Notes: a model not told the origin generated them from the sequence alone. Counted from the stretch's first letter, positions 33,488 through 64,000 are shown. The stretch is 64,000 bases of DNA from a virus (IMGVR_UViG_3300018432_000013:32001-96000); one strand, 5' to 3'. Translations and numbers: made by a program.

Positions 33488-33784
33488 TCAGGAGACCGCG
33501 CGCAGCGCATCGCGAATGAGCTTATCGAGTCGTACCGAAAGAGCGTCCGCGAGGGCAAGCGCATAGGGGAGGGTGGGGGTTGCACCGTTCTCGATGGCGC
33601 AGATTCCCTCCTTGCCGCGATAGCCGGAGCGCAGCGCGAGCTCCGCTTGGCTGAGCCCGAGCTCTAGCCGGCGCTCCTTCACCAGCTTGGCGAACGCCAG
33701 GGCGAAGTCCCGTCCAATCCGCGGAGGCGTCTTCTGGCCTGGTGGACGACCACGGCCACGCTTGCTTGCTGGGAGCTGGGGCAC
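33488..33784 (-). CDS. XRE-family HTH regulator with AT-hook-like N-terminus
   Basis: VKERRLELGLSQAELA...IENG..P....LADAL; KRGRGRP; GTG start 33784 inferred from GAGGT SD. Confidence 0.8.
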   Translation of the reverse strand: MPQLPASKRGRGRPPGQKTPPRIGRDFALAFAKLVKERRLELGLSQAELALRSGYRGKEGICAIENGATPTLPYALALADALSVRLDKLIRDALRAVS

Positions 33785-33836
33785 GGGGAGAGCGACCTCT
33801 GGGGAGCGGGGAGCGGGGAAGTGGGGAGCGGGGGAG

Positions 33837-34049
33837 TCAGGCAGGCGGAAGCGCTGCCTTCGCTTTGATGCATTCAGGGCACTTGTGGCGATAACCGAAC
33901 ACCTGATTGCCGTACGTGCGCCACCCCTCTGCTTTTGCACGCTCTAGTGCAATCGCGGGCGTCTCACTGTCGTACGCCGCCGCGAACATGCAGCGCGGAC
34001 TGAAGGCGTCACATCGCACCTCGAACACCTCGCATGTCTTGACGCTCAT
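33837..34049 (-). CDS. Small Zn-binding protein
   Basis: CD....C and GW...HKCPEC; SD GAGGAG. Confidence 0.6.
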   Translation of the reverse strand: MSVKTCEVFEVRCDAFSPRCMFAAAYDSETPAIALERAKAEGWRTYGNQVFGYRHKCPECIKAKAALPPA

Positions 34050-34554
34050 AGGAACAGCTCCTCAAGGGACCGCTGCTTATCCGATAGCACAAGAGCTGCA
34101 GATTTTTCTAACAAAAGTGCAGCCCTTATTTTTTGATACAGGTGATAGCAAATTTTGCGTAGACAGGCGCTGGGGTGGGCCCCCTACGGGGGCCTCAGCG
34201 GCCCCGAAAACGAGGGCGAGATGTAGGTGGAGGGGGTTGCCTACCTGTGCGCGGCCCCCCGCACACACGCTGCCTACACCCTCTCTGTGTCCCGCCTCGC
34301 TCGTTTCCGATTCCCCATACTGTAAAGATACGCGTTAGCGTCCCTCGCGTCAAGCATGCGCACGCTGGCGCCCCTGCTTTTCTCGCTCGCCTGACTCTGC
34401 TTTGCGTGTCTCACGTCTAAGTTATCGGCCACGTGGCGCGAGACTTGAGAGAGAAAGAGCAGGGCCCTGCTCTTTCGTATCACGCAAAGGGCGCTTGCCT
34501 CCCGTGCTTTTCTCGTATCTACTAAGAACACCTCAGACACGGGAGCACGAAACC

Positions 34555-35079
34555 ATGGATCTAATCTCGACCACATTCGCACTTCTCTCATTGGCCAGCC
34601 TAGCCGTTTATACCCTGGCCTGTACATGGGCCCTATTCGCGACCTTCCCGCTAGCTGAGACGCTGGCTGTGGCGCAAGAGAAGGCATTCCGCGGTAGCGC
34701 CTCCCGTAGCCTGCTCGCTCCCGTGCCTGCTCTTCTCTCGGTTGGCCCCCATTCTGAGAAAAGAGCAGATCCGATTGCCGCGCTAGCGCGGCAATCGAGC
34801 CTTGCCGCGCTAGCGGCGCTGGCTCCCAAGTGCGAGCGCCCTAGCGCCCGCACTTCTCTCGGCCTCAGGATGCGCCGCCCACTGTCGGCGCGCCTTCCCG
34901 CATGGCTGGCCGATGATTCGGCCAGCGCCTCAGAGCCAGCCGAACGGGTTATCACCATGGGCCCATGCGTCGCATTGCTCGTTCCGCTTTCTCTTTCTCA
35001 GAGGGGCGCTCAGACTCTGAAAAGCAGCCACGGGAAGCGCCGCAGATCGGCACCTGCAATGCTGAGGCTCGCAGCGTAA
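34555..35079 (+). CDS. Hypothetical membrane-anchored protein, first gene of the array
   Basis: Shared leader ACGGGAGCAC before the ATG; hydrophobic N-terminus. Confidence 0.45.
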   Translation: MDLISTTFALLSLASLAVYTLACTWALFATFPLAETLAVAQEKAFRGSASRSLLAPVPALLSVGPHSEKRADPIAALARQSSLAALAALAPKCERPSARTSLGLRMRRPLSARLPAWLADDSASASEPAERVITMGPCVALLVPLSLSQRGAQTLKSSHGKRRRSAPAMLRLAA

Positions 35080-35575
35080 GCAGATACGAGAAAGCGAACC
35101 TACGCAGCCTTGACGTGCAAACGTCAAGGCTTTCACGCGTTTATGGTGGAAAGGTCGGCGCGGAGAAAGCGGCCCGCAAGGGCTGCGGTGTAGCTCGGCT
35201 GGCGCCTCGCATGGGAAGCACGCCAGCCAAAGTGCGAAAAAGCGTGTGATTTCGCTAGGCGGAATCGTGCGCTCGGGAAGCGCCAGCGTGCAACGCTCGG
35301 GAAGGCCGGGATAGCCGGGCAGTCGCACGGGTAGCCGGTCGGCGCTTGCCAGGCTTGCGAGCCTGAGAAGGTCGGGAAGGCATCGGATAGGTGGTCGGCG
35401 CTTGCATAGCTCGGGAGGCGGTAGCGTGGCGCATGGGAGGCGCTAGCTAAGCTTGCCCGGGTAACCTTGGCTCCCATACCGCTAGCGCTAGCCGGGCCCC
35501 TCTTTTGAGCCACGGGAAGCGCCAGCGCCTTCCCGAGCGGCTGAAAGAGAAAAGCACCGATCGCTCTTTTTCGAT

Positions 35576-35602
35576 TCAAGTTAGGCGCGGCAGTGCCGAT
35601 AA
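35576..35602 (+). promoter_or_regulatory. Sigma28/FliA-type promoter 1
   Basis: TCAAGTTA-N11-GCCGATAA. Confidence 0.75.
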
Positions 35603-35635
35603 CTAGGGCAGCAGCCCAGCAAAGGAATTCCGAAC

Positions 35636-35830
35636 ATGAAGCGCCGCAATCGGATTGTTTCGTTCCTGCCCACCAGCAGCAGGCATTGTTTTTACCTCGC
35701 AGCTACCGGCAGACTCACTCAACTTCGCTTAGAGGCTCAACTGTTTACGTCGAAAGAGGCACACGAGGCGCAGGCCAGCAGCAAAGATAGATACGGGCCC
35801 GGGCAATGGGGCATCGAGGCCGTTGGCTGA
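35636..35830 (+). CDS. Small array gene
   Basis: 64 aa between repeat units, SD AAGGA. Confidence 0.6.
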   Translation: MKRRNRIVSFLPTSSRHCFYLAATGRLTQLRLEAQLFTSKEAHEAQASSKDRYGPGQWGIEAVG

Positions 35831-35857
35831 AATCGAACGGACCTACTCTTTTTCGAT

Positions 35858-35884
35858 TCAAGTTAAGCGCGGCAGTGCCGATAA
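35858..35884 (+). promoter_or_regulatory. Sigma28/FliA-type promoter 2 (probably leaderless)
   Basis: TCAAGTTA-N11-GCCGATAA, 7 nt before the ATG. Confidence 0.75.
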
Positions 35885-35891
35885 CTAGGGC

Positions 35892-36107
35892 ATGAGCCGA
35901 ATGGAACAGATTGATGCGCGATGGGAACTCATGAGCGACGCGATTCGCGCGCTTCGCAGCTTGGGCGTCTCGCTCGAAACGCGCGAACGCCTCAGCAAGC
36001 TCCTCGATGCCGCTTGGACGCATGAGCGGACACTCGAGTGCGACCGGCTAGTCCGCGCCAGCACCGACAAAGGCGCGCGCGAGATGGTCGCCCGCTGGAT
36101 CGGCTGA
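35892..36107 (+). CDS. Small array gene
   Basis: 71 aa filling the space between repeats. Confidence 0.65.
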   Translation: MSRMEQIDARWELMSDAIRALRSLGVSLETRERLSKLLDAAWTHERTLECDRLVRASTDKGAREMVARWIG

Positions 36108-36134
36108 AATCGAACGGGCCCGCTCTTTTTCGAT

Positions 36135-36161
36135 TCAAGTTAGGCGCGGCAGTGCCGATAA
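36135..36161 (+). promoter_or_regulatory. Sigma28/FliA-type promoter 3
   Basis: TCAAGTTA-N11-GCCGATAA. Confidence 0.75.
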
Positions 36162-36202
36162 TACTTATGAGGCGCACGCAAGCGCCTCACGGGAGCACGA
36201 CA

Positions 36203-36625
36203 ATGGTTACCACGCTTGAAAAGATCGCGGCGCTTGAAACACTCGAGCAACTTCACGCCAGCGGTACGGCTCCCATCTCGCAAGATGCCTTGACGGATCT
36301 GATCAATGGCATCCGTGGCGAGCTGCATGCCGCAGAAGAGCGCGCCGGATACGATGCCGCGCAATCTGAGCTTGCCGCGTTTCAAGCGGCTCACATCTAC
36401 ATGAGCCGCGGTCTCAAATATGCGGCCGATTGCGCTTGCTGCGGCGCACACATTGCGCGCGCGCTGAAATACTCGGGAGGCCTCCCGGCGTACTGGCGCA
36501 AGTCAGACAAAGCGATCGTTTGCGTCGATTGCTACAGCGCCAGCGAGTTGAGCCAGCGGGCCGTTGCGTACGGCTGGGCGAGCAAGCTTGACGGGAGCCG
36601 CATCTTGCGCGATTGCGAGAAATAA
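36203..36625 (+). CDS. Array gene with Zn-finger (CACC...CVDC)
   Basis: Shared leader; start MVTTLEK. Confidence 0.7.
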   Translation: MVTTLEKIAALETLEQLHASGTAPISQDALTDLINGIRGELHAAEERAGYDAAQSELAAFQAAHIYMSRGLKYAADCACCGAHIARALKYSGGLPAYWRKSDKAIVCVDCYSASELSQRAVAYGWASKLDGSRILRDCEK

Positions 36626-36647
36626 CCGGGCCCGCTCTTTTTTCGAT

Positions 36648-36674
36648 TCAAGTTAGCGCGGCAAGCGCCGATAA
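36648..36674 (+). promoter_or_regulatory. Sigma28/FliA-type promoter 4
   Basis: TCAAGTTA-N11-GCCGATAA. Confidence 0.75.
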
Positions 36675-36717
36675 CAATGGTGAGGCGCAAGCAAGCGCCC
36701 GAACGGGAGCACGGGAA

Positions 36718-36888
36718 ATGACTTTTGACGAGTGCGACGGCGCCACGGTTACGCGGAAGCAAGCTCTCCGGGAGATCAAGCGCCACGCTTACAAGGCGCT
36801 TGACGAAATGATTGCCGAGTTCGACGCCGAGGTAGGCGTGTGTGAGCAATACGATGCCATGGCTGTCTTGATCTGGCTTGGCTACTGA
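36718..36888 (+). CDS. Small acidic array gene
   Basis: Shared leader; MTFDEC...YDAMAVLIWLGY. Confidence 0.7.
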   Translation: MTFDECDGATVTRKQALREIKRHAYKALDEMIAEFDAEVGVCEQYDAMAVLIWLGY

Positions 36889-37059
36889 CATGCGCCGATT
36901 CGTTGCCGAAACCATCGCGGCAATCGGCTGGATCCGCTTTCACGTGGCGCACTTAGCCGCATACAAGCGCCAGCGCCGCAACAGAGACTTGCGCGGATCG
37001 CGTTAGTCGTATCTAATAATCAAAGGTCGCAATCGAGCGACCGAACGGGAGCACGGAAC

Positions 37060-37317
37060 ATGCAGCATAAGCACGAAGTACGTTTGGTGTGCGGCAATCG
37101 CTACGATGCCGGTTTCACGGTTGTTTATAGCAAGCGCGTCCGCTCTGAGGCATGCGCACTGCGGATTGCTCGCAAGCTTCGCGACCGCCATTGCGAGGAA
37201 ACCCGAAGCGGCCGCAAGTGTCGCGATTTTGTCGAAGTGGCGAATCGCGGTAGTGGTGAATGCCTGACGTTGGACGCAAACCTAGTCCCGAGTGTGGGCG
37301 AGCTCGGTTACTGGTGA
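37060..37317 (+). CDS. Small array gene
   Basis: Shared leader, 85 aa. Confidence 0.65.
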   Translation: MQHKHEVRLVCGNRYDAGFTVVYSKRVRSEACALRIARKLRDRHCEETRSGRKCRDFVEVANRGSGECLTLDANLVPSVGELGYW

Positions 37318-37403
37318 TAGCGGCGCCTGCTGGCGCTGGTCTCGCGTAAGCGCGTTTGCCTCGCAAGCGCCTTTACTCGAGTCAAGCAACGGGAGCACGG
37401 AAC

Positions 37404-37880
37404 ATGGCCAAACAAACGAAAATCGAATCTCACGAGCTTACCGCCCCTGCAAGTTGGGCAAGCTACTTGATCAATGGCGATGCCTCAGGATTCGATTACT
37501 ACAATACGCCCAACGATGCCGCAGGCGATCGCGATCGGGAGGCTTGCGAAGCATGGATTGCGGCGCTTGCGGCCAATAACGCGCACGTAGTGAGCGCCAA
37601 TGGTGAGCCGTTTTTCGCGCGCTATTGCGATGCCGATCGGGTAGTTTCCGGATTGCTTGCGGGCGACATGCTCACTTACCAGATCTTGCGGCATGCGCCG
37701 ATCTACTACTCGCTGTCTATCCCGCACTCGAGCACTCCCACGGAATGGCATCCAACCGAAGCAACGGGCCCGTTTGCCGTGCTTAGTCGCGGTGCATTTG
37801 CCACGGAAGCGGAAGCCCACGAATGGGCCCGCACTCATCTTGCGGGCCAGCCGTATAGCGTCCGGGAGTTTGCCGGCTAA
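37404..37880 (+). CDS. Array gene (WASYLINGD.SG phage family)
   Basis: Shared leader; P..WAS.LINGD.SG motif recalled from phage small-gene regions. Confidence 0.7.
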   Translation: MAKQTKIESHELTAPASWASYLINGDASGFDYYNTPNDAAGDRDREACEAWIAALAANNAHVVSANGEPFFARYCDADRVVSGLLAGDMLTYQILRHAPIYYSLSIPHSSTPTEWHPTEATGPFAVLSRGAFATEAEAHEWARTHLAGQPYSVREFAG

Positions 37881-37980
37881 TCTCTCGCGTATCGCGAAAG
37901 AGTGTTGACCGGGCCCGGCTATCTCGTATCTAATAATCTCATAGGCGCGCAAGTGAGCGAGCCGAACGGGAGCACGGGAA

Positions 37981-38178
37981 ATGGCCAGCCGCAAAATTGA
38001 GACTCTGATCGTGGAAACGCTAGCCGCACTTGAAATCGAACGCATGATCGCGGAAGCGATTGCGGAAGCGACGATCGGCGCCGCTATCGCGGAATGTCTA
38101 GCCCTCACCGATTTCGATTGCGAGCGCTCTTATGTGGGCCCGATCGTGGCTTGCTCAGATATCGCACTTGCCGCATAA
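37981..38178 (+). CDS. Small Ala/Glu/Ile-rich array gene
   Basis: Shared leader, 65 aa. Confidence 0.55.
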   Translation: MASRKIETLIVETLAALEIERMIAEAIAEATIGAAIAECLALTDFDCERSYVGPIVACSDIALAA

Positions 38179-38187
38179 AGAAACCGC

Positions 38188-38214
38188 TAAAGCGATACGC
38201 GATAGTGCCGATAA
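38188..38214 (+). promoter_or_regulatory. Sigma28/FliA-type promoter 5
   Basis: TAAA-N15-GCCGATAA, the enterobacterial consensus, with flanks unrelated to the other copies. Confidence 0.75.
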
Positions 38215-38258
38215 CTAAGTGTGAGGCGCAAGCAAGCGCCCGAACGGGAGCACGCAAC

Positions 38259-38699
38259 ATGGCAACGAAGTACAAGCTAGTCTCTGGTGATGTGTCCGGC
38301 GCGCCCGCACTGTATGCGGCGCGAATCGACGAAACCACGTTCGCGGTTTACGAGATCAATGAATGGGAGGATCTCGATTCCTCCGCGGTCGAGACTCACG
38401 GGAAATACAACGTTCAGGCGGGAATCGTCGATGTGCGCGGTTTCGACAGCCACACACAGATTCCCGGCTATTTTTCGGATAGCGTGCGGAGCGCGCTGCA
38501 ATCGTGCGGCTGGGAAATCGACGGCAGCGGCAATATCTGGTGTCCTTACAGTGGTGACATTGTCGTCCAAGCTGGCTCGCCCGCATTCGAACTGTGTCTA
38601 GTCGAATGCCTGTGGCAGTACGGGGCAAAAGATGTTGCGGCCGATGTGTCCGGCGATAACTTGCGCAAGCTCGTGCGGGAAGCGCGCGCGGCAGTCTGA
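38259..38699 (+). CDS. Acidic array gene
   Basis: Shared leader; start MATKYKL. Confidence 0.7.
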   Translation: MATKYKLVSGDVSGAPALYAARIDETTFAVYEINEWEDLDSSAVETHGKYNVQAGIVDVRGFDSHTQIPGYFSDSVRSALQSCGWEIDGSGNIWCPYSGDIVVQAGSPAFELCLVECLWQYGAKDVAADVSGDNLRKLVREARAAV

Positions 38700-38757
38700 T
38701 ACCGGCTAGTGGCGCTAGCGCCTTTACTTGAATCGAACGGGCCCGCTCTTTTTCGAT

Positions 38758-38785
38758 TCAAGTAAGCGCGGCAAGCGGACGATAA
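38758..38785 (+). promoter_or_regulatory. Sigma28/FliA-type promoter 6 (variant, within 14-bp inverted repeat)
   Basis: TCAAGTAA-N12-GACGATAA. Confidence 0.6.
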
Positions 38786-38828
38786 CAATGGTGAGGCGCA
38801 AGCAAGCGCCCGAACGGGAGCACGCAAC

Positions 38829-39293
38829 ATGGCAACGATTACGTGGAACATGGGCAGCAACGTGGAAGCGGTCTCAATCAAAACGGCTAGCGCGCTCGAA
38901 ATCGCGATCGCAACCATCGTTGCAGAGCACGCCGATAGCTACCCGGACACGGGAGCCGTTGGATTCCTTAAGGATCTCGCGTACGGCGGTTGCGAGTCCG
39001 GCATGGTGGGCGAGCTTGTCTACTACCGCGATACGTGCGCCTTTTATGAGACACATCGGCGCGAGATCGCCACGCTATTGAGCGAGATGCTTGCCGATGT
39101 AGGCGCAGACTCACCTCAAGGCCTGTTCGGTGAAAAGTGGGATCGCGAAGATCCGCTCGCATTGGAGGAAACGAATCAAAACTTGCTTGCGTGGTTCGCT
39201 TGCGAGGAAACGGCGCGCCGGTTGACGCAACTTGCGCGTGAGAGCTTGCCGGATGCGAGCGCTGGCGCGCGCGCGCTTGAAACACTCCTCTAG
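38829..39293 (+). CDS. Acidic helical array protein, possible DNA mimic / anti-restriction protein
   Basis: FLKDLAYGGCESGMVGELVYYRDT..FY...NLLAWFACEE; acidic; function is inference. Confidence 0.55.
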   Translation: MATITWNMGSNVEAVSIKTASALEIAIATIVAEHADSYPDTGAVGFLKDLAYGGCESGMVGELVYYRDTCAFYETHRREIATLLSEMLADVGADSPQGLFGEKWDREDPLALEETNQNLLAWFACEETARRLTQLARESLPDASAGARALETLL

Positions 39294-39299
39294 TCGCTA

Positions 39300-39860
39300 C
39301 TTGCTCCCGTGGCGCAGCGAATCGGGCCCGCACTCTGCAAAACGAGTGCGGGCCCGATTCGCGTTTGCGGTTCGTTTGCGGCCGCTGGCGCTGGCTCCCG
39401 TGGCAACGCTGGCTCCCGTGCTCCCGTGGCGGCGCTGGCTTCCCGAGCGGCGCTGGCGCTGGCTTGCCGTGCTCCCGTGCTCCCGAGCGGCGCTGGCGCT
39501 GACCTTGCTCCCGTGGCGTGCTCCCGAGCGGCGCTGGCTTGCCGTGGCGCTGGCTTGCCGTGCTTCCCGAACGGCGCTGGCGTTCAAACTAGCCTCCCAT
39601 GCGCCTCGGGAAGGCGCGCCAGCGCCAGCGGCTAGCCGGACATAGCCGCACGCTACGCTGGCGCCGCTTGCGAGCAGCTAGCGCGCTTCCCGTGCTTCCC
39701 GTGCTTCCCGTGGCGCTGGCTCCCGTGCTCCCATGCTCCCGTGCGGCGCTGGCTCCCGTGGCTGGCTCCCGTGGCTGGCTCCCGTGGCTGGCTCCCGTGG
39801 CGCTGGCGCTGGCACTGGCTTGCCGTGTTCCCGAGCGGCGCTGGCTTCCCGTGGCATTGC
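39300..39860. repeat. Low-complexity tract of GCTCCCGTG / GCTGGC repeats
   Basis: 12 exact GCTCCCGTG plus variants; 13-bp unit GGCTCCCGTGGCT about x4 at 39751-39800. Confidence 0.9.
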
Positions 39861-39890
39861 CGCGACTTGCGAGAATCTTTCTTTTTCGAT

Positions 39891-39918
39891 TCAAGTAAAC
39901 GCGGCAAGCGGCCGATAA
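39891..39918 (+). promoter_or_regulatory. Sigma28/FliA-type promoter 7
   Basis: TCAAGTAA-N12-GCCGATAA. Confidence 0.65.
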
Positions 39919-39961
39919 CTTAGGTGAGGCCAGCGAGACGCTAGCCGGATGCGGAAAAAGA

Positions 39962-39996
39962 TTGACGGCAAACGAGCAGACCGGCTAATCTGATAC
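39962..39996 (+). promoter_or_regulatory. Sigma70-like promoter overlapped by TAATCTGATAC operator-like site
   Basis: TTGACG-N18-TAATCT. Confidence 0.55.
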
Positions 39997-40012
39997 TAGA
40001 AAGAGCGAGCAG

Positions 40013-40195
40013 ATGAAAAAGCCAACCAAGTATGTGTACGAATACATCGTACAGGGCCACTACGGTCAGGGATGGGAAGACCTGACCGCGCACGACACGC
40101 GCAAAGCGGCACGCGACGAGCGGCGCGTGTACGCGGCAAACGAGCCGGGCCCGCATCGGGTCATCTTCAGGCGCTCTCTCCGGCACACGGTTTGA
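40013..40195 (+). CDS. Small array gene (YG.GWE family)
   Basis: VQGHYGQGWEDL...Y..NE. Confidence 0.7.
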   Translation: MKKPTKYVYEYIVQGHYGQGWEDLTAHDTRKAARDERRVYAANEPGPHRVIFRRSLRHTV

Positions 40196-40316
40196 GCACA
40201 CGGGATCTCGCACACGGGATCTGCACACGGGTTGAGCCCTGCACACGAGCACACGGTCTCGCGCACACGGCTCAGAACGCGAGCACGCGGTCTGACAGCA
40301 CACGGGAGCACGAATC

Positions 40317-40628
40317 ATGGCAATGAACGCTGACATCGAACACGCGCGCACACGGCTTCTCGCGGTCCTCTCGGAGGGCTCAAAAGTCTACTGCGTACTT
40401 CGCACACGGTCTAAGTCGGGAATGTCGCGCACGGTGTCTTTCTTCACCTACCACGACGGGCACATGGTTTGGCTTGACGGCTACATGCACACGGTTTGCG
40501 GCTTCGCCCGCAAAGGCGATTCGCTGGTCATCAAGGGTGTTGGGCAGGACGCGGGGTTGCACGCGGTTTCGACGCTAGCCGCGAAGCTCTTCGGCCGCTC
40601 CGATGCGCTAGGCCACGAGTGGCTCTGA
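40317..40628 (+). CDS. Array gene (G..VY..LR..S.SGMSR phage family)
   Basis: Shared leader; motif recalled from uncharacterised phage proteins ending in WL. Confidence 0.75.
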   Translation: MAMNADIEHARTRLLAVLSEGSKVYCVLRTRSKSGMSRTVSFFTYHDGHMVWLDGYMHTVCGFARKGDSLVIKGVGQDAGLHAVSTLAAKLFGRSDALGHEWL

Positions 40629-40736
40629 ACTGAACATGCACGCGGGATCGCGCGCTGAGGTTCTCTCGCAATCCGCACACGGGATCGCGCTCGAATCTGA
40701 GCACACGGGCTCAACTTTCACGGGAGCACACGGCAC

Positions 40737-41000
40737 ATGGAAAAACATTACAGCTACGGTTCAGGCTCAACGGGCTGCATGTACGATTCAGGCCCGCACA
40801 CGGCTTCGACTCTCGAAGACGCAATCGAAGGCGCGCTGTGTATCTTCGACGACCTTAGCGACGGCGCGCTCGCTTGTGCACGCGCGGATCTACTCGCACA
40901 CGGGATCCACTACTTCCCTGAACTAGTACGCGGATACGCTGGCGCCGATTACGTCGAAGTGGTCGAGCAAGCCGGTCCCTGCCCTGAGTCCGACGACTGA
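40737..41000 (+). CDS. Small acidic array gene
   Basis: Shared leader, 87 aa, G..GCMYD. Confidence 0.7.
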   Translation: MEKHYSYGSGSTGCMYDSGPHTASTLEDAIEGALCIFDDLSDGALACARADLLAHGIHYFPELVRGYAGADYVEVVEQAGPCPESDD

Positions 41001-41111
41001 ACGCACACGGGATCGCACGCGAGGATCGCGCGCTGAGATTCTTCCGCCAGCCTGCACACGGCTTGCGCTCGAATCTGAGCACACGGGCTCAACTTTCACG
41101 GGAGCACGAAC

Positions 41112-41303
41112 ATGGGAAACATGAAGCACTACACGCTACAGATTCGCAAGCCTGGCCGCGCATATCGCACGGTCGAGACTTCGACCGACGCCGCATCGAT
41201 TCGCTGGGCTTTCGACCAGCACTTGGTGCCTTACGGTGAGAGCAGCGTGCGAATCTTGGACACGAACGGCGCAGTCATCATGCGCGCCACGCCAAAGCAG
41301 TAA
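41112..41303 (+). CDS. Small array gene
   Basis: Shared leader, 63 aa. Confidence 0.7.
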   Translation: MGNMKHYTLQIRKPGRAYRTVETSTDAASIRWAFDQHLVPYGESSVRILDTNGAVIMRATPKQ

Positions 41304-41406
41304 CGCACACGGGATCGCACGCGGGATCGCGCGCTGAGATTCTCTCGCAATCCGCACACGGGATCGCGCTCGAATCTGAGCACACGGGCTCTAAGGAGTA
41401 AGACAC

Positions 41407-41775
41407 ATGGCAAGGCAGCGCAAACTTGGTTCACGGCAGAAGGCAAACGCGGACGCTGCATTCCTGGCCGCATTCGAGCGCGCAATGGTACTACTCGGCG
41501 CCACGAAGCGCGCGGACTGGACGTGGACAGCACATGAGTACGAAATCGAAACGCGTGCAGGTCGACTCGGCATCACGGGTTATCCCACGTCGCTCTCGGA
41601 GCCAGGCGGTTGGGTGGCGATGCGCTTCGACGACACCGAGCGCGCGAACACACTCGGACTCGGACAGCTCCTCAACAGGAATAGCGGCAAGTACAACGTA
41701 GATAGCCTGTACGGCTGCTCAGACGCGACCGAAGTTACCGACACGATCATGCGCCACGTACAGCGCGCGCTCTGA
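41407..41775 (+). CDS. Array gene
   Basis: SD TAAGGAG, 122 aa between repeats. Confidence 0.7.
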   Translation: MARQRKLGSRQKANADAAFLAAFERAMVLLGATKRADWTWTAHEYEIETRAGRLGITGYPTSLSEPGGWVAMRFDDTERANTLGLGQLLNRNSGKYNVDSLYGCSDATEVTDTIMRHVQRAL

Positions 41776-41882
41776 AAGATTGCGCACGCGGGATCGCGCG
41801 CTGAAATCTGCACACGGGCTTGCCTCGCACGCGGTCTGCAGATTTGAGCACACGGGCTCAACTTTCACGGGAGCACACGGTC

Positions 41883-42068
41883 ATGAAATACATCCTGAAG
41901 CAAGAGACGAACGACGGGATTTGGACTAGCGAAGCGTTCGAGGCGCCGCACGAGCACGCGGTAAAGCAAGCGGTCGTCGCCGGCTACCTGAACGGCTCGG
42001 CACGCTGGGCAGAGACGCTCGACGGCACGCGCATCTACGGCCTAGACAAAAAAGGAAAGCAGCTCTGA
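41883..42068 (+). CDS. Small array gene
   Basis: Shared leader; start MKYILKQ. Confidence 0.7.
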   Translation: MKYILKQETNDGIWTSEAFEAPHEHAVKQAVVAGYLNGSARWAETLDGTRIYGLDKKGKQL

Positions 42069-42181
42069 GTCGCACACGGGATCGCACGCGGGATCGCGCG
42101 CTGAGATTCTTTCGCCAGCCTTGCACACGGCTTGCGCTCGAATCTGAGCACACGGGCTCAACTTTCACGGGAGCACGGAAC

Positions 42182-42406
42182 ATGGAAAAAGACACAAGCC
42201 ACCTAGGCGCGCTACAGGTTCGCCTCTCGCACGAACGAAACCGCCTGAACGCAGCGAAGACGGAAGGCGAGCGCGAACTTCGCCAAGTCTGGGTCGCTCA
42301 GATTGAAAAGGAAATCGCAGGCGAGAAGGCTTTCCTCGGGATGGTTGACGAATCTCCTACGACTGAGATGAGCGCTGACGACCTTCTCGCTGAACTTCTC
42401 GCCTGA
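42182..42406 (+). CDS. Small helical array gene
   Basis: Shared leader, 74 aa. Confidence 0.75.
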   Translation: MEKDTSHLGALQVRLSHERNRLNAAKTEGERELRQVWVAQIEKEIAGEKAFLGMVDESPTTEMSADDLLAELLA

Positions 42407-42510
42407 ACCTGCACGCGGGATCGCGCGCTGAGATTCAACCGCCAGCCTGCACACGGCTTGCGCTCGAATCTGAGCACACGGGGCTCAACGCACACGGGAG
42501 TTTACGAAAC

Positions 42511-42726
42511 ATGGAAACGAAAAAGCAGCACACGGCGCCAGTTCTTAGGCTCGCTTCGGTTCGGCGGACGCGCACACTCTTCGTGCTGCGCTACGAAGAG
42601 GGACAGGGCGAGAGGCGCAAAGGTGATTATCTCTACCTGCTCACGCGGGATCGCGCAGACAAGGTCATCGACCGCGCGCGCCGCCTTGGAATCCGCGTCT
42701 TTCGGATCCCCTACCGCATTCGCTGA
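42511..42726 (+). CDS. Small basic array gene
   Basis: Variant leader ACGGGAG, 71 aa. Confidence 0.6.
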   Translation: METKKQHTAPVLRLASVRRTRTLFVLRYEEGQGERRKGDYLYLLTRDRADKVIDRARRLGIRVFRIPYRIR

Positions 42727-43129
42727 CTCGCACACGGGATCTCGCACACGGTTTCGTGCATAGCAGACTGCGCTTCGGGTTTGGGGCCTCCATCGTGCTC
42801 CCACACTCGCCCAAACTACGAAGCGCTCTCTGCTGCACACGAACTCCGCACACGGCACGCACCTCGCACACACGGATTTCCAATTAAGTTCTACGCCACG
42901 TACGAATACGTCACACGCATGCACGCGGTAGTCACGCTAACGGACGAGCAAAAACAACTTTGCCGGTGCTTACCGCGTCGAGTACCGACCCGGCCACAAC
43001 ATCTACGAAACAAGCTTCAAACACGCCGAGCAAGCCGCAGCCCTCAAAGGCGGTCGGCTTGAGCGGTTCACCCGGGTCTGAAGCACACGGCACGCACCTC
43101 GCACACGGCATTCAAGGAGGAACACGGCA

Positions 43130-43387
43130 ATGGCACACGGATTCACACGCGACTGCCTCGTCTCAATCATCTACGACGTGCTCGACAAGCGCTGGGACGG
43201 CGACATGAGCCCATACAAAATCTCAGAAGTCGCAGCCGACGCACTCATCACAGCCGGCATCGAGGTCGCTACAGAACCGAGCGAAGAAGAGCGCGAGATT
43301 GCCGCATGCGAAGCGCGCGCCGAGCTCGATGAGTACCTGCTCGATCTTCACAACGATCAACTCGCTGACGAGGCGATGGGCAAATGA
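43130..43387 (+). CDS. Acidic hypothetical protein
   Basis: SD AAGGAGG. Confidence 0.7.
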   Translation: MAHGFTRDCLVSIIYDVLDKRWDGDMSPYKISEVAADALITAGIEVATEPSEEEREIAACEARAELDEYLLDLHNDQLADEAMGK

Positions 43388-43575
43388 ACGACGAAGAACG
43401 CAAGAAACTACTGCGCTCGGCTATGCTTGCCTGCCGCAGTCCGATGTACACGATGCACATCGAGACGCGCGAGCAACTTCTCGCGGGCCTCGAACACGCG
43501 AACATCAGCGCAGCCGATCTCGTTCGTTTTGCCATCGACACGCACCGCAAAAACAGCTGAAGGAAACCCGCCACC

Positions 43576-43866
43576 ATGCCAACGCCCACCCCCATCAAGC
43601 TCACGCTCGTACGCGCAGGCCTCGAAGCCATCGAGCGGCACGTAGAGAAGATTCCCTATCACGCAAACCTCATCCGCTCCGACCTCGAAGCGAGCTACCT
43701 GGAGCGCGAGCGCGCGCTCTTCATCTCGCAGCAGTGCGTCAGCATCCGCGATGCGCTCGCGAGCGCTCTGCGCGCAATCAACGCGATCGACAAGGACGCG
43801 CAGCAATACCTTGCCGAGACCGATCCGAACCCTTCATCTCACGCCCGACTCCCGAATAAAGATTGA
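43576..43866 (+). CDS. Hypothetical protein
   Basis: 96 aa, SD AAGGA. Confidence 0.6.
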   Translation: MPTPTPIKLTLVRAGLEAIERHVEKIPYHANLIRSDLEASYLERERALFISQQCVSIRDALASALRAINAIDKDAQQYLAETDPNPSSHARLPNKD

Positions 43867-43890
43867 CGGTGCTACCGGCGGTGCTACCAT
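43863..43890 (+). promoter_or_regulatory. Sigma70 promoter of the TA operon with direct-repeat operator
   Basis: TTGACG-N16-TACCAT with extended TG; GGTGCTACC twice; ATG 7 nt downstream. Confidence 0.65.
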
Positions 43891-43897
43891 GGCTGCT

Positions 43898-44119
43898 ATG
43901 GCTACCGTCCACAAGATCAGCATCTCGCTCGGCTCTGAAGACCTCGAATGGGCACGCAAAAAGGCCGAAGAAACTGCGAGTAGTGTCTCCGCAGTGATGA
44001 GCGGCGCACTGCGCCGGGAGCAACAACACGAAGCGCGACTAAAGCTTCTCGAGTGGCTCGGTACGGACGACATCACCGAAGCAGACCGTGAAGCCATACG
44101 CCTAGAACTACGCTCGTGA
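43898..44119 (+). CDS. RHH-type antitoxin (VapB-like)
   Basis: KISISL...A......SVSA....ALR; GTGA overlap with the PIN gene. Confidence 0.75.
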   Translation: MATVHKISISLGSEDLEWARKKAEETASSVSAVMSGALRREQQHEARLKLLEWLGTDDITEADREAIRLELRS

Positions 44120-44493
44120 CACGCGGCATTACGTTCGACACGGGCGCACTGATCGCGCTTGAACGCCGCCAAAAACGCATGCGCAGCATCGTGACTGAAG
44201 CCACCCTTCAAGGTCTCACGATCACCATTCCAGCTCCTGTGCTCACCGAGTGGTGGCGCAAACCAAGCGCAGCCCAGACGAATATTCTCCGCGCGTTCGA
44301 GGTGGAGCCGCTCACAGAACGCCTCGCAAAGCTCGCTGGTGAGGCCATCGAAAGCGTCGCACACGCAACACCCATCGACGCCATCGTGATGGCCAGCGCA
44401 GCATCACGAGGAGACATCGTGTTCACGAGCGACTTCGACGATCTTGATCGCTTGCGCGCCTATTTTCCCAACGTCCGAGTCTTACGCACATGA
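44116..44493 (+). CDS. vapC: PIN-domain toxin (VapC-like)
   Basis: FDTGALIA, VLTE, DAIV, TSD.DD acidic PIN residues. Confidence 0.85.
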   Translation: MTRGITFDTGALIALERRQKRMRSIVTEATLQGLTITIPAPVLTEWWRKPSAAQTNILRAFEVEPLTERLAKLAGEAIESVAHATPIDAIVMASAASRGDIVFTSDFDDLDRLRAYFPNVRVLRT

Positions 44494-48789: not shown

Positions 48790-49359
48790 TTGTTTACTCC
48801 TCTGGCTGGGCGCCGGACTTCAGCGCCTCACCAAAGAGAGCATAGCATGCCCGTATCGAATAAGGGCAAGTTCAAAGCACACGCGCCCGGAGGACTACCG
48901 CAGCGCTCAAAGGCCGGGCCTTCCCAGCCAAACACCGAGATGTCACGCGCCGCACGGCCTTCACCCCGCGCGTGTGGCTCGGTGTTCTGCCTCGCAACAC
49001 TCAGGTCCGCTACCTTACCCATCGCCCTCCACACGCGGATTTGCCCAAACTTCGCTTGAAATCACTTATCCGATATCGCACCATGTACAGACGGATCGAC
49101 AGGCTCAAACCCTCAGATTCGATCCGAAAGACAACTTGCGGATCACCTCGGCCTACTCATATCCACGAGACCATCGATTGGATCTTGCGTTGGTTCGACG
49201 CCGCTGTTGAAGTTCTCTGGCCATTCCGGGTCGCCGCGTCACCCAACGTTCGTCATTTCCTGCGTCTCATCATCTCTCCGTCGCCTCGTCTCTCCGTCTC
49301 CGCTGCCCTCCCGACCTTCGTCTTCAGGGGCTTTTCCGCAAATTCTAGGAGCCAACCCC

Positions 49360-50001
49360 ATGCGCGCTGACGTGCAGTCTCCAGCCGACGTGATCACCGA
49401 TGAGATTGAGCGGATCATTGCGAAGCTAGCGCGGGACGTGGCAGAGCGTCTTCGCTCCTGCGACCGCTACCAAGCCAGACAAGACATCGCACAGGCCTTG
49501 CGCCTGGTCGCGCTGCAAGAAGCGCCCAAGTATCGCGGCGACAACGGCGCGACCCTAGCGACATTCCTCTACCGAGCGCTGCGTGTCAAAGCCTGGTCGG
49601 TCGGCTTCTGGCTCGACCTGCCCACGCATGTCGCAAAGAACAAGCGCACGGGCGTTTGGACCACGCGCACGGCTGCGCAGACCGACAAGCGCGCTACGGA
49701 TGCACGCGCACCGAGAGACGACTTACCGCCTGCCGAGGCCATGGACCTGATCCGCGACCCCGAAGACCTCGAGAGCCGCCTCGCAGACCGCGAGATCGCC
49801 GCGCGTGTCGAGGCCGTTCTGCACGAGGATCCACAGCACGAGGCGATTGCTCGTGTGCTGTTCGACGGCGAGAAGGCACCCGACGTGGCACGCGACACGG
49901 GGGTACCCATCGGCGACCTTCGCAAGTGCATCGTACGCACACGCGCACGGCTTCGACGCGACCCGACGCTGCAAGAGCTCTACTTCCGCTGCCTGGCGTG
50001 A
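49360..50001 (+). CDS. Phage-encoded sigma70-family sigma factor (regions 2 and 4)
   Basis: DIAQ.....LQEA.KY..DNGATLATFLY..LR (region 2-like) and DVARDTGVP....RK...R.R..LR (region 4 HTH); SD AGGAG. Confidence 0.7.
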   Translation: MRADVQSPADVITDEIERIIAKLARDVAERLRSCDRYQARQDIAQALRLVALQEAPKYRGDNGATLATFLYRALRVKAWSVGFWLDLPTHVAKNKRTGVWTTRTAAQTDKRATDARAPRDDLPPAEAMDLIRDPEDLESRLADREIAARVEAVLHEDPQHEAIARVLFDGEKAPDVARDTGVPIGDLRKCIVRTRARLRRDPTLQELYFRCLA

Positions 50002-55063: not shown

Positions 55064-55834
55064 ATGTGCGCTCACCGCGTCCGGCGACTTGCCGAAGCAG
55101 ATGAGGTTCGTGATTTCATCGTCGAAGCTAGGTTGAATAAGAAGGACTACGAAGTGGCACGGCTGCAGCGCGCTGATGTCAACACGACGATGTACCCGTC
55201 CACCGTCCATTTTCGACGGCACTACGGACACACGTTCAACACGCTTTTGGGCAGGAGACGCCCTGGCAGTGGGCTGGTATCCACGAAACAGGTATGTCGC
55301 TTCGCAGCAAATCTAACGCAGCGCGAATATGACTTGGCGATTCGCAGTGCGAATAGCGGGCGATCGCGAATCTATCCAGCGAGCTGGCGGTTTCCAAAGG
55401 TGTACGGCAGCACGTTTGGCGAACTGCTCGAGAGGCATCAGCAAACGTCGACGAGAGAGCGACGCGAGCACACACGCCTTTGCCAACAGCTTGCTTCCCG
55501 AAGGGCAAAGGGTCGGCTACGTGCACGCGGACGTTCGCTCGCTGAACGTGAAACCATCTACTACCGAGAGATACTTCGACGTTACCGGCTGACTCGCGAA
55601 GGGCTAGGCGTTTTTTTGGCAGCACAGAACGGGTGCTGTGGTGCCTGTAATCAGCCACCGCTGAAAGGCAAAAGGTTGGTTGTAGACCACTGCCACCGTA
55701 CGGGCTTGGTTCGTGGGTTGCTTTGCCGTACCTGCAACGTGGCGCTGGGCCTCCTTGAAGAGGACCCGCAACGTATCTACAGCCTTGCGGACTACCTGCT
55801 GAGAGCGAGGGTGACCCATGTCAGTGCGGGATGA
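55064..55834 (+). CDS. Free-standing endonuclease VII-type (HNH) homing endonuclease
   Basis: Q.G.C..C...L.VDHCH.TG.VRGLLC..CN..LG; two N-terminal YP....F...YG.TF..LL repeats; lower GC than its flanks. Confidence 0.82.
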   Translation: MCAHRVRRLAEADEVRDFIVEARLNKKDYEVARLQRADVNTTMYPSTVHFRRHYGHTFNTLLGRRRPGSGLVSTKQVCRFAANLTQREYDLAIRSANSGRSRIYPASWRFPKVYGSTFGELLERHQQTSTRERREHTRLCQQLASRRAKGRLRARGRSLAERETIYYREILRRYRLTREGLGVFLAAQNGCCGACNQPPLKGKRLVVDHCHRTGLVRGLLCRTCNVALGLLEEDPQRIYSLADYLLRARVTHVSAG

Positions 55835-62381: not shown

Positions 62382-64000
62382 ATGACCACCAAAAAGAAAA
62401 TCACCGAGGCTGTCGCAGACAGCGCAAGCGACCAGCGCAAGCTCGACGCGGCCAAGAAAGTGCTCGACGGTGTATTCGGTAAGCGCATGGCTGTCGGCAG
62501 CAACTCCGAAGTCGACGAGGTGATCCCCACAGGTCTCGAGGTGGTCGACCGCTATGTGCTTGGCATCGGTGGCTGGCCCGTGCGGCGCGTCTGCGAACTC
62601 TTCTCTGACCCTTCGGCGGGTAAGGCGCAGCCCATCTCGACTCTGCTGCCGACCCCGAACGGGTGGCGGCGGTTGGGTGATCTGCGGCCAGGAGATCTCG
62701 TATTTGGATCTGACGGTAAGCCAACACAGGTCTTGGGTGTCTTTCCCCAAGGCCGCAAACGAACTTATCGCGTGCACTTCCGCGACGGCGCTTCAACGCG
62801 CTGCTGCGGCCAGCACCTCTGGGCGGTAAATACCAAAGCACGCCTACGTCGAGGCCATGCAGTGCTGGTGCGCAGCACGAAGGAGCTACTCAACGACCTA
62901 CATTGGAAGGGACCGCACGGCATCAAGGAAGCCAAGTGGCGGGTGCAGCTTGCTGCACCCGTACAGTTCCCCGAAGCCGATTTACCCGTCGACCCATACG
63001 TTATGGGTGCACTGCTTGGGGACGGGTGCCTCACGCGAGGCGCGTGCATCTCCATGCACAACCCTGAACTAGCCGCGCGTGTGCTCGCGCGACTCCCAAC
63101 GGGTGACAGTGGCGTCTTCGACGGTAAATGGCTACGCATTCGGCGAGCCGTACGTGGACACGACCATCGTGGTGTGATGCTGCAGTCAACTACGCTCGCA
63201 ACGCTCAGTCACTATGGCTTGCGACATCGAGCGGAGGCCAAGTTCGTTCCCGCGCCGTACTTACTCGGATCCGTCGAGCAGCGACTGGAGCTGCTCCGAG
63301 GGATTTTCGATACGGATGGGCACGCTGACAAAGGGTATGTCGACTTTGGTACAGTGAGCGCCCAGCTTGCCGAGGACGTAGTAACACTGGTGCGCTCCCT
63401 GGGTGGTGTCGCCCAGGTACGCGTGAAAGGGCAATCTACGTACGAATACCGTGGTGAAACGCGCCAAGGACAGATCGTCTACCGCGTTTGTGCGCGGCTT
63501 GATGATCTCATTCCCGTCACGCTCTCGAAGCATCTTGCGCGGTACAAACGCACTGAGCGCATTCCGCGCACGCTCACTCGAATCGAGCGGGATCGAATCG
63601 AGGAGTCCGTGTGCATCAAGGTTGCCGCACAGAACGGCCTCTACGTGACCGAGGACTTCATCGTTACACACAACACAAGCCTCGGCTTTGCAGCGCTCGC
63701 GAGCGCGCAGCGCGAAGGTGGACTTGCGATCCTGATCGAAACCGAGGATGCGCTCCAGGTGGCGCGTGCCACGATCTTCGGGGTGAACCTGAGCGAAGTG
63801 TTTCTCTCTGAGCCCGTTTCGATCGAAGACGTGCTCGAAGGGATTCGCCTTGGACTTGCTGCCATCCCCGAGGGTGTTGGCCCAAACCTCATCGTATGGG
63901 ATTCCATCGCCATGTCCGCGCTCGCTGCGACCAACGAAAAAGGGCAGGGCGCCAAAGGCGTCGGGCGTAAAGCTGCGCTGATGAGCGAGCAGTGGCCAAG
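62382..64000 (+). CDS. recA: RecA/UvsX recombinase containing an intein (runs off window edge)
   Basis: Not in the ORF track. Manual translation: IPTG...D..LGIGGWP..R..E..SDPSAGK|intein|TSL...AQ..GG.A..IETE.AL...IVWDSI. Confidence 0.9.
   Translation, partial: MTTKKKITEAVADSASDQRKLDAAKKVLDGVFGKRMAVGSNSEVDEVIPTGLEVVDRYVLGIGGWPVRRVCELFSDPSAGKAQPISTLLPTPNGWRRLGDLRPGDLVFGSDGKPTQVLGVFPQGRKRTYRVHFRDGASTRCCGQHLWAVNTKARLRRGHAVLVRSTKELLNDLHWKGPHGIKEAKWRVQLAAPVQFPEADLPVDPYVMGALLGDGCLTRGACISMHNPELAARVLARLPTGDSGVFDGKWLRIRRAVRGHDHRGVMLQSTTLATLSHYGLRHRAEAKFVPAPYLLGSVEQRLELLRGIFDTDGHADKGYVDFGTVSAQLAEDVVTLVRSLGGVAQVRVKGQSTYEYRGETRQGQIVYRVCARLDDLIPVTLSKHLARYKRTERIPRTLTRIERDRIEESVCIKVAAQNGLYVTEDFIVTHNTSLGFAALASAQREGGLAILIETEDALQVARATIFGVNLSEVFLSEPVSIEDVLEGIRLGLAAIPEGVGPNLIVWDSIAMSALAATNEKGQGAKGVGRKAALMSEQWP
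62625..63674 (+). mobile_element. Class 3 intein with LAGLIDADG homing endonuclease (350 aa)
   Basis: Starts AQP, block B HLW, MGALLGDG and LRGIFDTDG, block F VCIKV, ends YVTEDFIVTHN|T; inserted in Walker A between K and T. Confidence 0.9.

Follow-up and report, generated by a model that had tools for sequence, protein, structure and literature searches.

Repeat-bounded small genes of an uncultured soil phage: a probable early region assembled from shared expression modules

In the genome of an uncultured phage from a soil metagenome, 20-22 small genes lie in a row, most of them preceded by a member of one of two repeat families, and the question raised by this region is whether the repeats are kept for expressing the genes or for exchanging them. 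The region is part of the IMG/VR virus record IMGVR_UViG_3300018432_000013 (112,926 bp; complete genome, GC content ~63%), of which bases 32001-96000, a stretch of 64,000 nucleotides, form the window analyzed here; window coordinates are used unless coordinates of the whole record (G000:C1) are stated. According to a gene call based on the GC content of third codon positions (GC3), combined with PHROG and Pfam, the minus strand carries capsid, portal, terminase and tail genes up to ~34 kb, the coding strand switches at 34.4 kb, and replication genes (helicases, primase, PolA, RecA) follow from 45 kb onward. The small-gene region is thus situated between the structural and the replication modules, at the strand switch. 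The capsid protein has the HK97 fold and belongs to a large environmental family from phages of ~100-120 kb. Among GenBank phages no nucleotide match was found, the best TerL and PolA matches reached at most 30% identity, and no isolated phage is close. An initial annotation had described the region as an integrase-free cassette platform of about 18 tiny genes. We consider it probable that it is instead an early region dependent on host RNA polymerase, namely a variable island of small accessory genes in which the repeats are standardized expression modules.

The array of small genes with two repeat families was recovered as first described and is far beyond chance; the genes (38-174 aa, plus strand, 34.5-43.9 kb, numbered g1 to g22 in Table 1) have a lower GC3 than the rest of the genome. 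The span given for the family with sigma28-type promoters, 35.5-39.9 kb (block A), was correct, as was that of the CACACGG units at 40.2-42.7 kb (block B), where six full units were delimited at 40629-42510. Repeats of both families begin 0-3 nt past the previous stop codon or include it (GGCTGA ending g2 and g3), and they end, as had been stated, in a shared ribosome-binding site (RBS): the decamer ACGGGAGCAC has 13 forward copies, all within 34539-42167 and each just upstream of an ATG. That nearly every gene carries such a unit holds for most of them, but g6 and g8 have sigma70-like promoters, g7 has the RBS only, g5b and g21 are translationally coupled, and the Shine-Dalgarno sequence ahead of g15 and g20 is a different one.

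Regarding block A, the whole 113-kb genome was searched with a sigma28-type pattern (T[C/A]AAG, 14-15 nt, G[C/A]CGATAA). All eight matches to this promoter class (FliA/WhiG) lie within 34422-39918, seven directed rightward into genes and one leftward, against ~0.01 matches expected by chance as estimated from base composition. The -10 element is complete (8/8 positions) in six of the eight. The copy before g9 has the canonical -35 TAAAG in place of TCAAG, and is thus a variant that arose independently yet agrees with the sigma28 consensus. Bacterial sigma28 promoters (FliA/WhiG/SigD) show the same -35 T(C/A)AAG, the same 14-15-nt gap and the -10 GCCGATAA, whereas here these elements stand ahead of phage genes. 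In the solved sigma28 open complex at fliC of Pseudomonas aeruginosa, the -35 TCTAAAG occupies positions -36 to -30 and the -10 GCCGATAA positions -15 to -8 (PMC12784957); the phage matches reproduce this geometry, with identical spacing. Because no FliA/WhiG-family gene was found in the phage genome, the promoters are presumably read by a host sigma factor of this class; if this dependence holds, phage gene expression would be linked to host motility. A literature search, which was limited and is no proof of absence, yielded no published report of a phage early region under sigma28-type promoters.

A constant 7 nt (once 8 nt) separates the -10 element from the first base of a GC hairpin or, for g3, from the ATG, and the predicted start site, 7-8 nt past the -10 element, falls there. 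Predicted mRNAs would therefore begin with a 5' hairpin or, with the A of the ATG as first base, be leaderless. The stem of this hairpin covaries between the copies of the A unit. Three or four sigma70-like promoters are also present in the region (before g1, g6 and g8, and one ahead of block B); those of g1, g6 (37008) and g8 (37925) share the word CGTATCTA, and this type occurs nowhere else in the genome. The promoters of g2, g3 and g4 each overlap an upstream inverted repeat that takes in the previous stop codon, and inverted repeats which lie upstream of the -35 or overlap it may be operators. Block A would accordingly be a row of short transcription units, each started from a sigma28-type or sigma70-like promoter, with a GC hairpin that could protect the 5' end of the mRNA, followed by a fixed translation-initiation region. 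A different motif, RGGCACYAAC, has 18 gene-oriented copies, found only outside the small-gene region, before structural and replication genes and sometimes abutting the ATG. Early transcription of the small-gene region may thus depend on the sigma28 and sigma70 factors of the host, and that of the remaining genes on a phage factor.

The only sigma-factor candidate of the phage was found at 49207-50001 (plus strand); it is weak, divergent and similar to the extracytoplasmic-function (ECF) group (Sigma70_r2, 17.5 bits; phrog_1740, E 0.002; AlgU-like PDB matches, E 0.06). Its homologue in a complete relative (G001) is 27% identical, and G001 is without sigma28-type promoters and has another recurrent word, CGCTAAC.

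Block B is built differently. Of the 43 forward copies of CACACGG in the genome, 38 lie within 40184-43134, where the reverse strand has none; the relaxed form CAC[A/G]CGG counts 49 forward versus 0 reverse copies, and the extended motif reads G-CACACGG-N-N-T. When the six full units between g12 and g18 were aligned, the mean column identity was 79%, with an invariant core of 21 nt. Each is predicted to fold into an interrupted 16-pair hairpin, whose loop contains GCACACG, and a small hairpin showing ACACGG; both hairpins carry the octamer GCACACGG in or beside the loop, and the shared translation-initiation region follows. Across the alignment, 97.9% of the cells of the hairpin form a standard pair (14-46% in slid controls), and seven of 24 pairs are changed on both sides versus 1.9 in shuffles, none of 500 shuffles reaching the observed value. 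Octamers also occur within open reading frames (ORFs), in all three reading frames, and those in g12 fall on residues that differ in homologues from Ralstonia and Gordonia phages; the octamer is thus selected at the level of the nucleic acid. Sites for a CsrA-type protein were rejected, since many octamers lack GGA. A link to host repetitive extragenic palindromic (REP) elements was rejected as well, a scan of GTDB with the invariant 20-mer of the B unit giving four single chance matches.

Neither a sigma70-, sigma28- or RGGCACYAAC-type promoter nor a plus-strand terminator was recognized inside block B, so that the genes of this block do not each arrive with promoter and RBS, as had been proposed for the array. 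The simplest reading is that transcription from the promoter pair at 39.9 kb would cover block B as a single operon, with its genes split by structured RNA modules of ~105 nt. These modules most likely serve RNA processing or stabilization and bind a single sequence-specific factor. Across the two blocks, what is conserved in the repeats is just what expression signals would require (the -35, the -10, the 5' hairpin, the Shine-Dalgarno region and the covarying RNA hairpin), and selection for expression accounts for these parts without a platform function.

Several observations weigh against an interpretation as expression modules. The covariation of the B units comes largely from one divergent copy, U16, in a set of only six, and single-sequence folds of these units are modestly better than those of shuffles (z -0.7 to -1.8). 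The stem-loops beside the sigma28-type promoters are not predicted to be canonical terminators, no T tail following the stem, and a terminator scan gave 10 sites versus 11.7 in shuffles, none of them at the units, with predicted stem-loop folds of -4 to -19 kcal/mol. The 38 octamers, including ORF-internal copies, and a 500-nt antisense tract (described below) are not explained by a purely regulatory reading alone. Finally, the region occurs in a single DNA sequencing run, from a soil metagenome, and in none of the RNA runs listed, and the use and timing of promoters, the operons and the processing of RNA are predictions from the DNA.

The repeats might instead be maintained mainly as seams for homologous recombination, forming a platform on which the phage RecA adds, deletes or swaps single genes together with their own signals, without an integrase. 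Since the repeats run from the previous stop codon to the ATG, any crossover between them would leave the genes intact, and their identity is up to 93-99% over 60-75 nt, even at spacer positions without obvious function. The six B units are mosaic in make-up: two multi-nucleotide variants of the 5' part and two variants of the hairpin occur in every one of the four possible combinations, and 14 of the 21 informative site pairs fail the four-gamete test, from which it follows that sequence has passed between the repeats. The genome contains a RecA homologue, and no match to PF00589 or PF00239 (tyrosine and serine recombinases) was found in the genome; this much of the proposed integrase-free recombination stands, but the UvsY protein named along with RecA was not found. 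A low-depth contig of the source metagenome has one 54-nt back-joint that repeats the g9 promoter unit. No repeat-to-repeat deletion junction of the kind called for by the initial annotation was seen in the contigs of the single run; this search covered contigs only, and contigs break at the repeats. With their promoterless B units, with conserved positions that coincide with promoter, RBS and hairpin elements, and with readable relatives that are without both repeat families (pattern search and k-mer survey), the repeats are unlikely to be a dedicated platform.

The comparison with relatives supports regarding the region as a variable island. Three complete relatives (G001-G003; 59-65% capsid identity) contain no homologue of any gene at 26-48.5 kb, whereas they do have the flanking structural and replication genes, and the equivalent region of G001 contains only a small family of a 22-nt motif. 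Five complete relatives contain no match to the sigma28 pattern, and a neighboring protein of 344 aa has no homologue among 5.8 billion protein clusters. No relative emerged from IMG/VR when two flanking proteins, two exact repeat sequences or only the capsid protein served as queries, and a capsid alignment gave only relatives of at most 66% identity. Closer ones are represented by the capsid protein P0002 (84% identity, on a 117-kb contig) and by the g7 homologues P0123-P0125 (71-75% identity; P0123 on a 12.8-kb contig). A metagenome scan with the A-unit pattern returned 18 single matches in unrelated contigs, some of them possibly bacterial FliA promoters, and no phage relative.

In T4-type phages, promoter (early)/stem-loop elements (PeSLs) are small modules of a consensus early promoter and a stem-loop that flank single ORFan genes in a variable region (PMC2839356, Arbiol et al. 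2010; PMC4122927, Comeau et al. 2014). PeSL repeats recombine with each other without need of a dedicated recombinase, and mini-circles are known (PMC2839356), which provides a precedent for a platform. As with PeSLs, small non-conserved ORFs lie here between conserved core modules. Of the eight sigma28-type promoters of block A, most have an adjacent stem-loop (an inverted repeat over the -35, a hairpin at +1, or both), and block B has a hairpin without a promoter. PeSL stem-loops are efficient terminators, whereas those found here are not terminators by prediction; PeSL promoters are of the sigma70 type, those of block A mostly of the sigma28 type; a 5' hairpin and a 10-nt RBS word are further constant parts of the present module, and a second module type lacks a promoter. 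The phage is moreover unrelated (HK97-fold capsid, 113 kb, 63% GC, soil). Judged from its sequence, the locus seems to work like PeSL cassettes without being a strict member, and may be called an unusual variant of the T4-type promoter/stem-loop cassettes. In the interpretation as expression modules, units of 60-110 nt that are 85-100% alike in places would recombine homologously, as their mosaicism shows they have done, and this probably contributes to gene gain and loss in the way known from T4-type PeSLs. Recombination is nevertheless best seen as a by-product of shared regulation, as has been proposed for PeSLs (PMC2839356), and not as the purpose of a dedicated platform.

Phage early regions hold most of the unknown host-takeover and anti-defense genes, and their turnover is understood mainly from T4-like phages. 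The same cassette logic would here be found in an unrelated soil phage, with three unusual traits: promoters of the sigma28 class, a promoterless structured spacer with a polarized octamer, and a tract complementary to the RBS. Comparable arrangements are known elsewhere: in the host-takeover module of Bacillus phage SPO1, some two dozen small early genes are accompanied by numerous strong promoters and ribosome-binding sites, and the polycistronic early RNA of phage T7 has a conserved hairpin, an RNase III site, between each pair of genes. The modules of both are without sequence relationship to those described here.

Block B also resembles an integron in that promoterless single genes are split by structured repeats. 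The locus is not an integron, however: no integrase of either class was found in the phage genome, and each repeat includes the RBS for the gene that follows. Rfam covariance models applied to 33-45 kb gave no family match, only one sub-threshold chance match, and no attC-like match.

The RecA homologue itself is a 671-673-aa open frame at 62382-64000 and beyond (G000:C1:94382-96397), in which two RecA segments are ~1 kb apart, a separation that looks like an intein or homing-endonuclease insertion. The same frame also matches an oversized (2.7-kb) terminase ORF of G001, which suggests a shared inserted element.

A further alternative concerns the non-coding tract of ~500 nt between the two blocks. 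It may be a post-transcriptional circuit, in which the shared initiation region is the address, the tract is a multivalent antisense RNA transcribed by read-through past the preceding hairpin and shutting the early messages off together, and the GCACACGG hairpins are the sites of a second RNA-binding factor. The tract holds 20 of the 31 reverse-oriented copies of the RBS word in the genome. As plus-strand RNA, it is complementary to the shared 5' untranslated region and RBS over stretches of 25-29 nt (83-87%). Predicted duplexes with the initiation regions of g4, g5, g8, g9 and g10 reach about -50 kcal/mol (z -5.7 to -7.5), an energy reached by none of 120 random genome windows used as controls, whereas z is near 0 for the initiation regions without the shared motif (g2, g11, g15). 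Minus-strand ORFs over 39.3-39.9 kb were rejected as genes, the repeat periods of the tract (13 and about 40 nt) not being multiples of three, and an enrichment of GATC was not seen. Set against this are the lack of any promoter seen for the tract, the very strong hairpin that precedes it (the stretch 39310-39380 folds at -47.7 kcal/mol), and the fact that the tract could equally be a DNA-level array or consist of inverted unit fragments left by recombination. On balance, such a circuit as the main role of the repeats is quite improbable. Expression of the tract, if it occurs, would make it a one-to-many switch of translation.

A combination of these elements with the favored interpretation as expression modules can also be envisaged, in which takeover genes would be tied both to the flagellar sigma factor of the host and to a common translation-start address, and be switched by the multivalent antisense RNA (39.4-39.9 kb) together with an octamer-binding factor acting on ~40 GCACACGG sites. 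We regard this combination as distinctly unlikely. Were it true, the motility of the cell would govern early expression, and the phage would possess a modular transcription-plus-translation control circuit that is undescribed for any phage.

It is very improbable that the octamer field, together with the two non-coding tracts, consists of arrays to which proteins bind at the DNA level (origin iterons, a Chi-like hotspot, a packaging site or a transcription roadblock), in spite of the strict one-strand polarity, the high density even inside ORFs, the tandem run at 40184-40300 and the opposite orientation of the two tracts flanking block A, because the loops in which the octamers lie belong to a covarying hairpin, a sign that they are read in single-stranded form, GC skew gave no origin signal, the 123-bp terminal repeat of the genome resembles a circular-assembly overlap, and 38 sites over 3 kb are, to our knowledge, unlike any iteron or pac array.

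The small genes are, as had been claimed, unrelated to each other; no paralogy was detected among them, and a simple tandem gene duplication was rejected for this reason. Their description as often acidic applies to about a third, eight having an isoelectric point (pI) below 5.2, but ten have a pI of at least 8.9. Two genes, g1 and g19, are doubtful. Several Enterococcus phages with genomes of ~150 kb, EFP01 among them, have homologues of g10 (DUF7222) near the ends of their records; others occur in phages of Staphylococcus and Bacillus, and we take all of these phages to be SPO1-like (Herelleviridae). Homologues of g12 are found in the Ralstonia and Gordonia phages mentioned above, and g7 and g15 belong to small families in metagenomes. 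With homologues scattered over very different phages, the small genes look like mobile phage accessory genes; roles in host takeover or anti-defense are conjecture. PADLOC gave one weak and implausible match, and atlas queries with g7 and g9 yielded no usable result. A conserved domain occupies the last ~60 residues of g7. It recurs behind unrelated N-termini in proteins from metagenomes and in five other large phages of IMG/VR (87-192 kb); comparable repeat units were not found around the domain in these five phages.

Table 1. Features of the small-gene region (window coordinates).
Feature	Position	Strand	Remarks
Sigma28-type promoter	34422-34448	-	Leftward; faces a 70-aa ORF (33837-34049) and an HTH_3 gene (33488-33940)
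Perfect GC-rich palindrome	34454-34475		Strand-switch point between divergent promoters; fold -15.7 kcal/mol
Sigma70-like promoter	34495-34521	+	TTGCCT, then TATCTA; ahead of g1
g1	34555-35079	+	174 aa; doubtful (low GC3, low complexity), yet with shared RBS decamer
Non-coding tract	35080-35545	+	Degenerate forward CNCGGGA(A/G) copies; partly complementary to 39376-39870
Sigma28-type promoter	35576-35602	+	Heads g2
g2	35636-35830	+	
Sigma28-type promoter	35858-35884	+	Heads g3
g3	35892-36107	+	Predicted leaderless
Sigma28-type promoter	36135-36161	+	Heads g4
g4	36203-36625	+	
Sigma28-type promoter	36648-36674	+	Before g5
g5	36718-36888	+	
g5b	36890-37006	+	Translationally coupled
Sigma70-like unit, 5' hairpin and RBS	from 37008	+	Before g6
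g6	37060-37317	+	
g7	37404-37880	+	RBS part of unit only
Sigma70-like promoter	37905-37932	+	Before g8
g8	37981-38178	+	
Sigma28-type promoter	38188-38214	+	TAAAG -35; then 5' hairpin, RBS, g9
g9	38259-38699	+	
Perfect inverted repeat, 12 bp	about 38728-38763	+	Overlaps -35 of g10 promoter
Sigma28-type promoter	38758-38785	+	Then 5' hairpin, RBS, g10
g10	38829-39293	+	DUF7222
Perfect hairpin, 19 bp	39317-39362	+	Interrupted T tail; terminator-like, closes block A
Non-coding tract, ~500 nt	39376-39870	+	20 reverse-oriented RBS-word copies
Sigma28-type promoter	39891-39918	+	With the next, only recognizable promoters ahead of block B
Sigma70-like promoter	about 39963-39997	+	See preceding line
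g11	40013-40195	+	60 aa; first gene of block B
Leader-like run	40184-40316	+	Seven CACACGG copies, mostly 13-14 nt apart; ends in shared RBS of g12
g12	40317-40628	+	
g13	40737-41000	+	
g14	41112-41303	+	
g15	41407-41775	+	
g16	41883-42068	+	
g17	42182-42406	+	
g18	42511-42726	+	
B units (six, ~105 nt)	40629-40736, 41001-41111, 41304-41406, 41776-41882, 42069-42181, 42407-42510	+	Intergenic, g12-g18
Octamer-field tail	42727-43129	+	Six more copies; no full B unit; doubtful g19 (42919-43062)
g20	43130-43387	+	Small, without repeat unit, tightly coupled
g21	43384-43560	+	Small, without repeat unit, tightly coupled
g22	43576-43866	+	Small, without repeat unit, tightly coupled

The word GGGCCC is absent from block B and concentrated in the remainder of the region, 15 of its 41 genome copies lying in 34400-40200 (5% of the length), several of them inside A units and the big hairpin. 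No tRNAs were found. Far to the right, a repeat of ~28 nt occurs in about 30 copies at 50-75-nt spacing (G000:C1:104500-108500, corresponding to 72.5-76.5 kb in window coordinates and thus beyond the 64-kb window); a minus-strand ORF of 605 aa adjoins this CRISPR-like array, and a solitary copy of the repeat is located at about G000:C1:4160-4186. An RNA-guided self-regulation was rejected, the spacers of the array not matching the small-gene region.

Directly to the left of the small-gene region, adjoining the HTH_3 gene, the minus strand carries three paralogous genes of the Uma2 family in tandem (putative restriction endonuclease, PF05685; 31705-33427). To the right follows a VapBC-like pair (43898-44493, plus strand), in which a 73-aa ORF overlaps the start of a PIN-domain gene (44116-44493) by 4 nt; judged by eye from its translation, the ORF resembles a ribbon-helix-helix antitoxin, and a low-depth contig of the source metagenome skips 165 nt (43890-44056) within it. 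An endonuclease VII/HNH-like gene (55064-55834) between the DnaB-like helicase and the primase has a GC3 of 0.61, below that of its neighbors, and is on this account possibly a mobile insertion.

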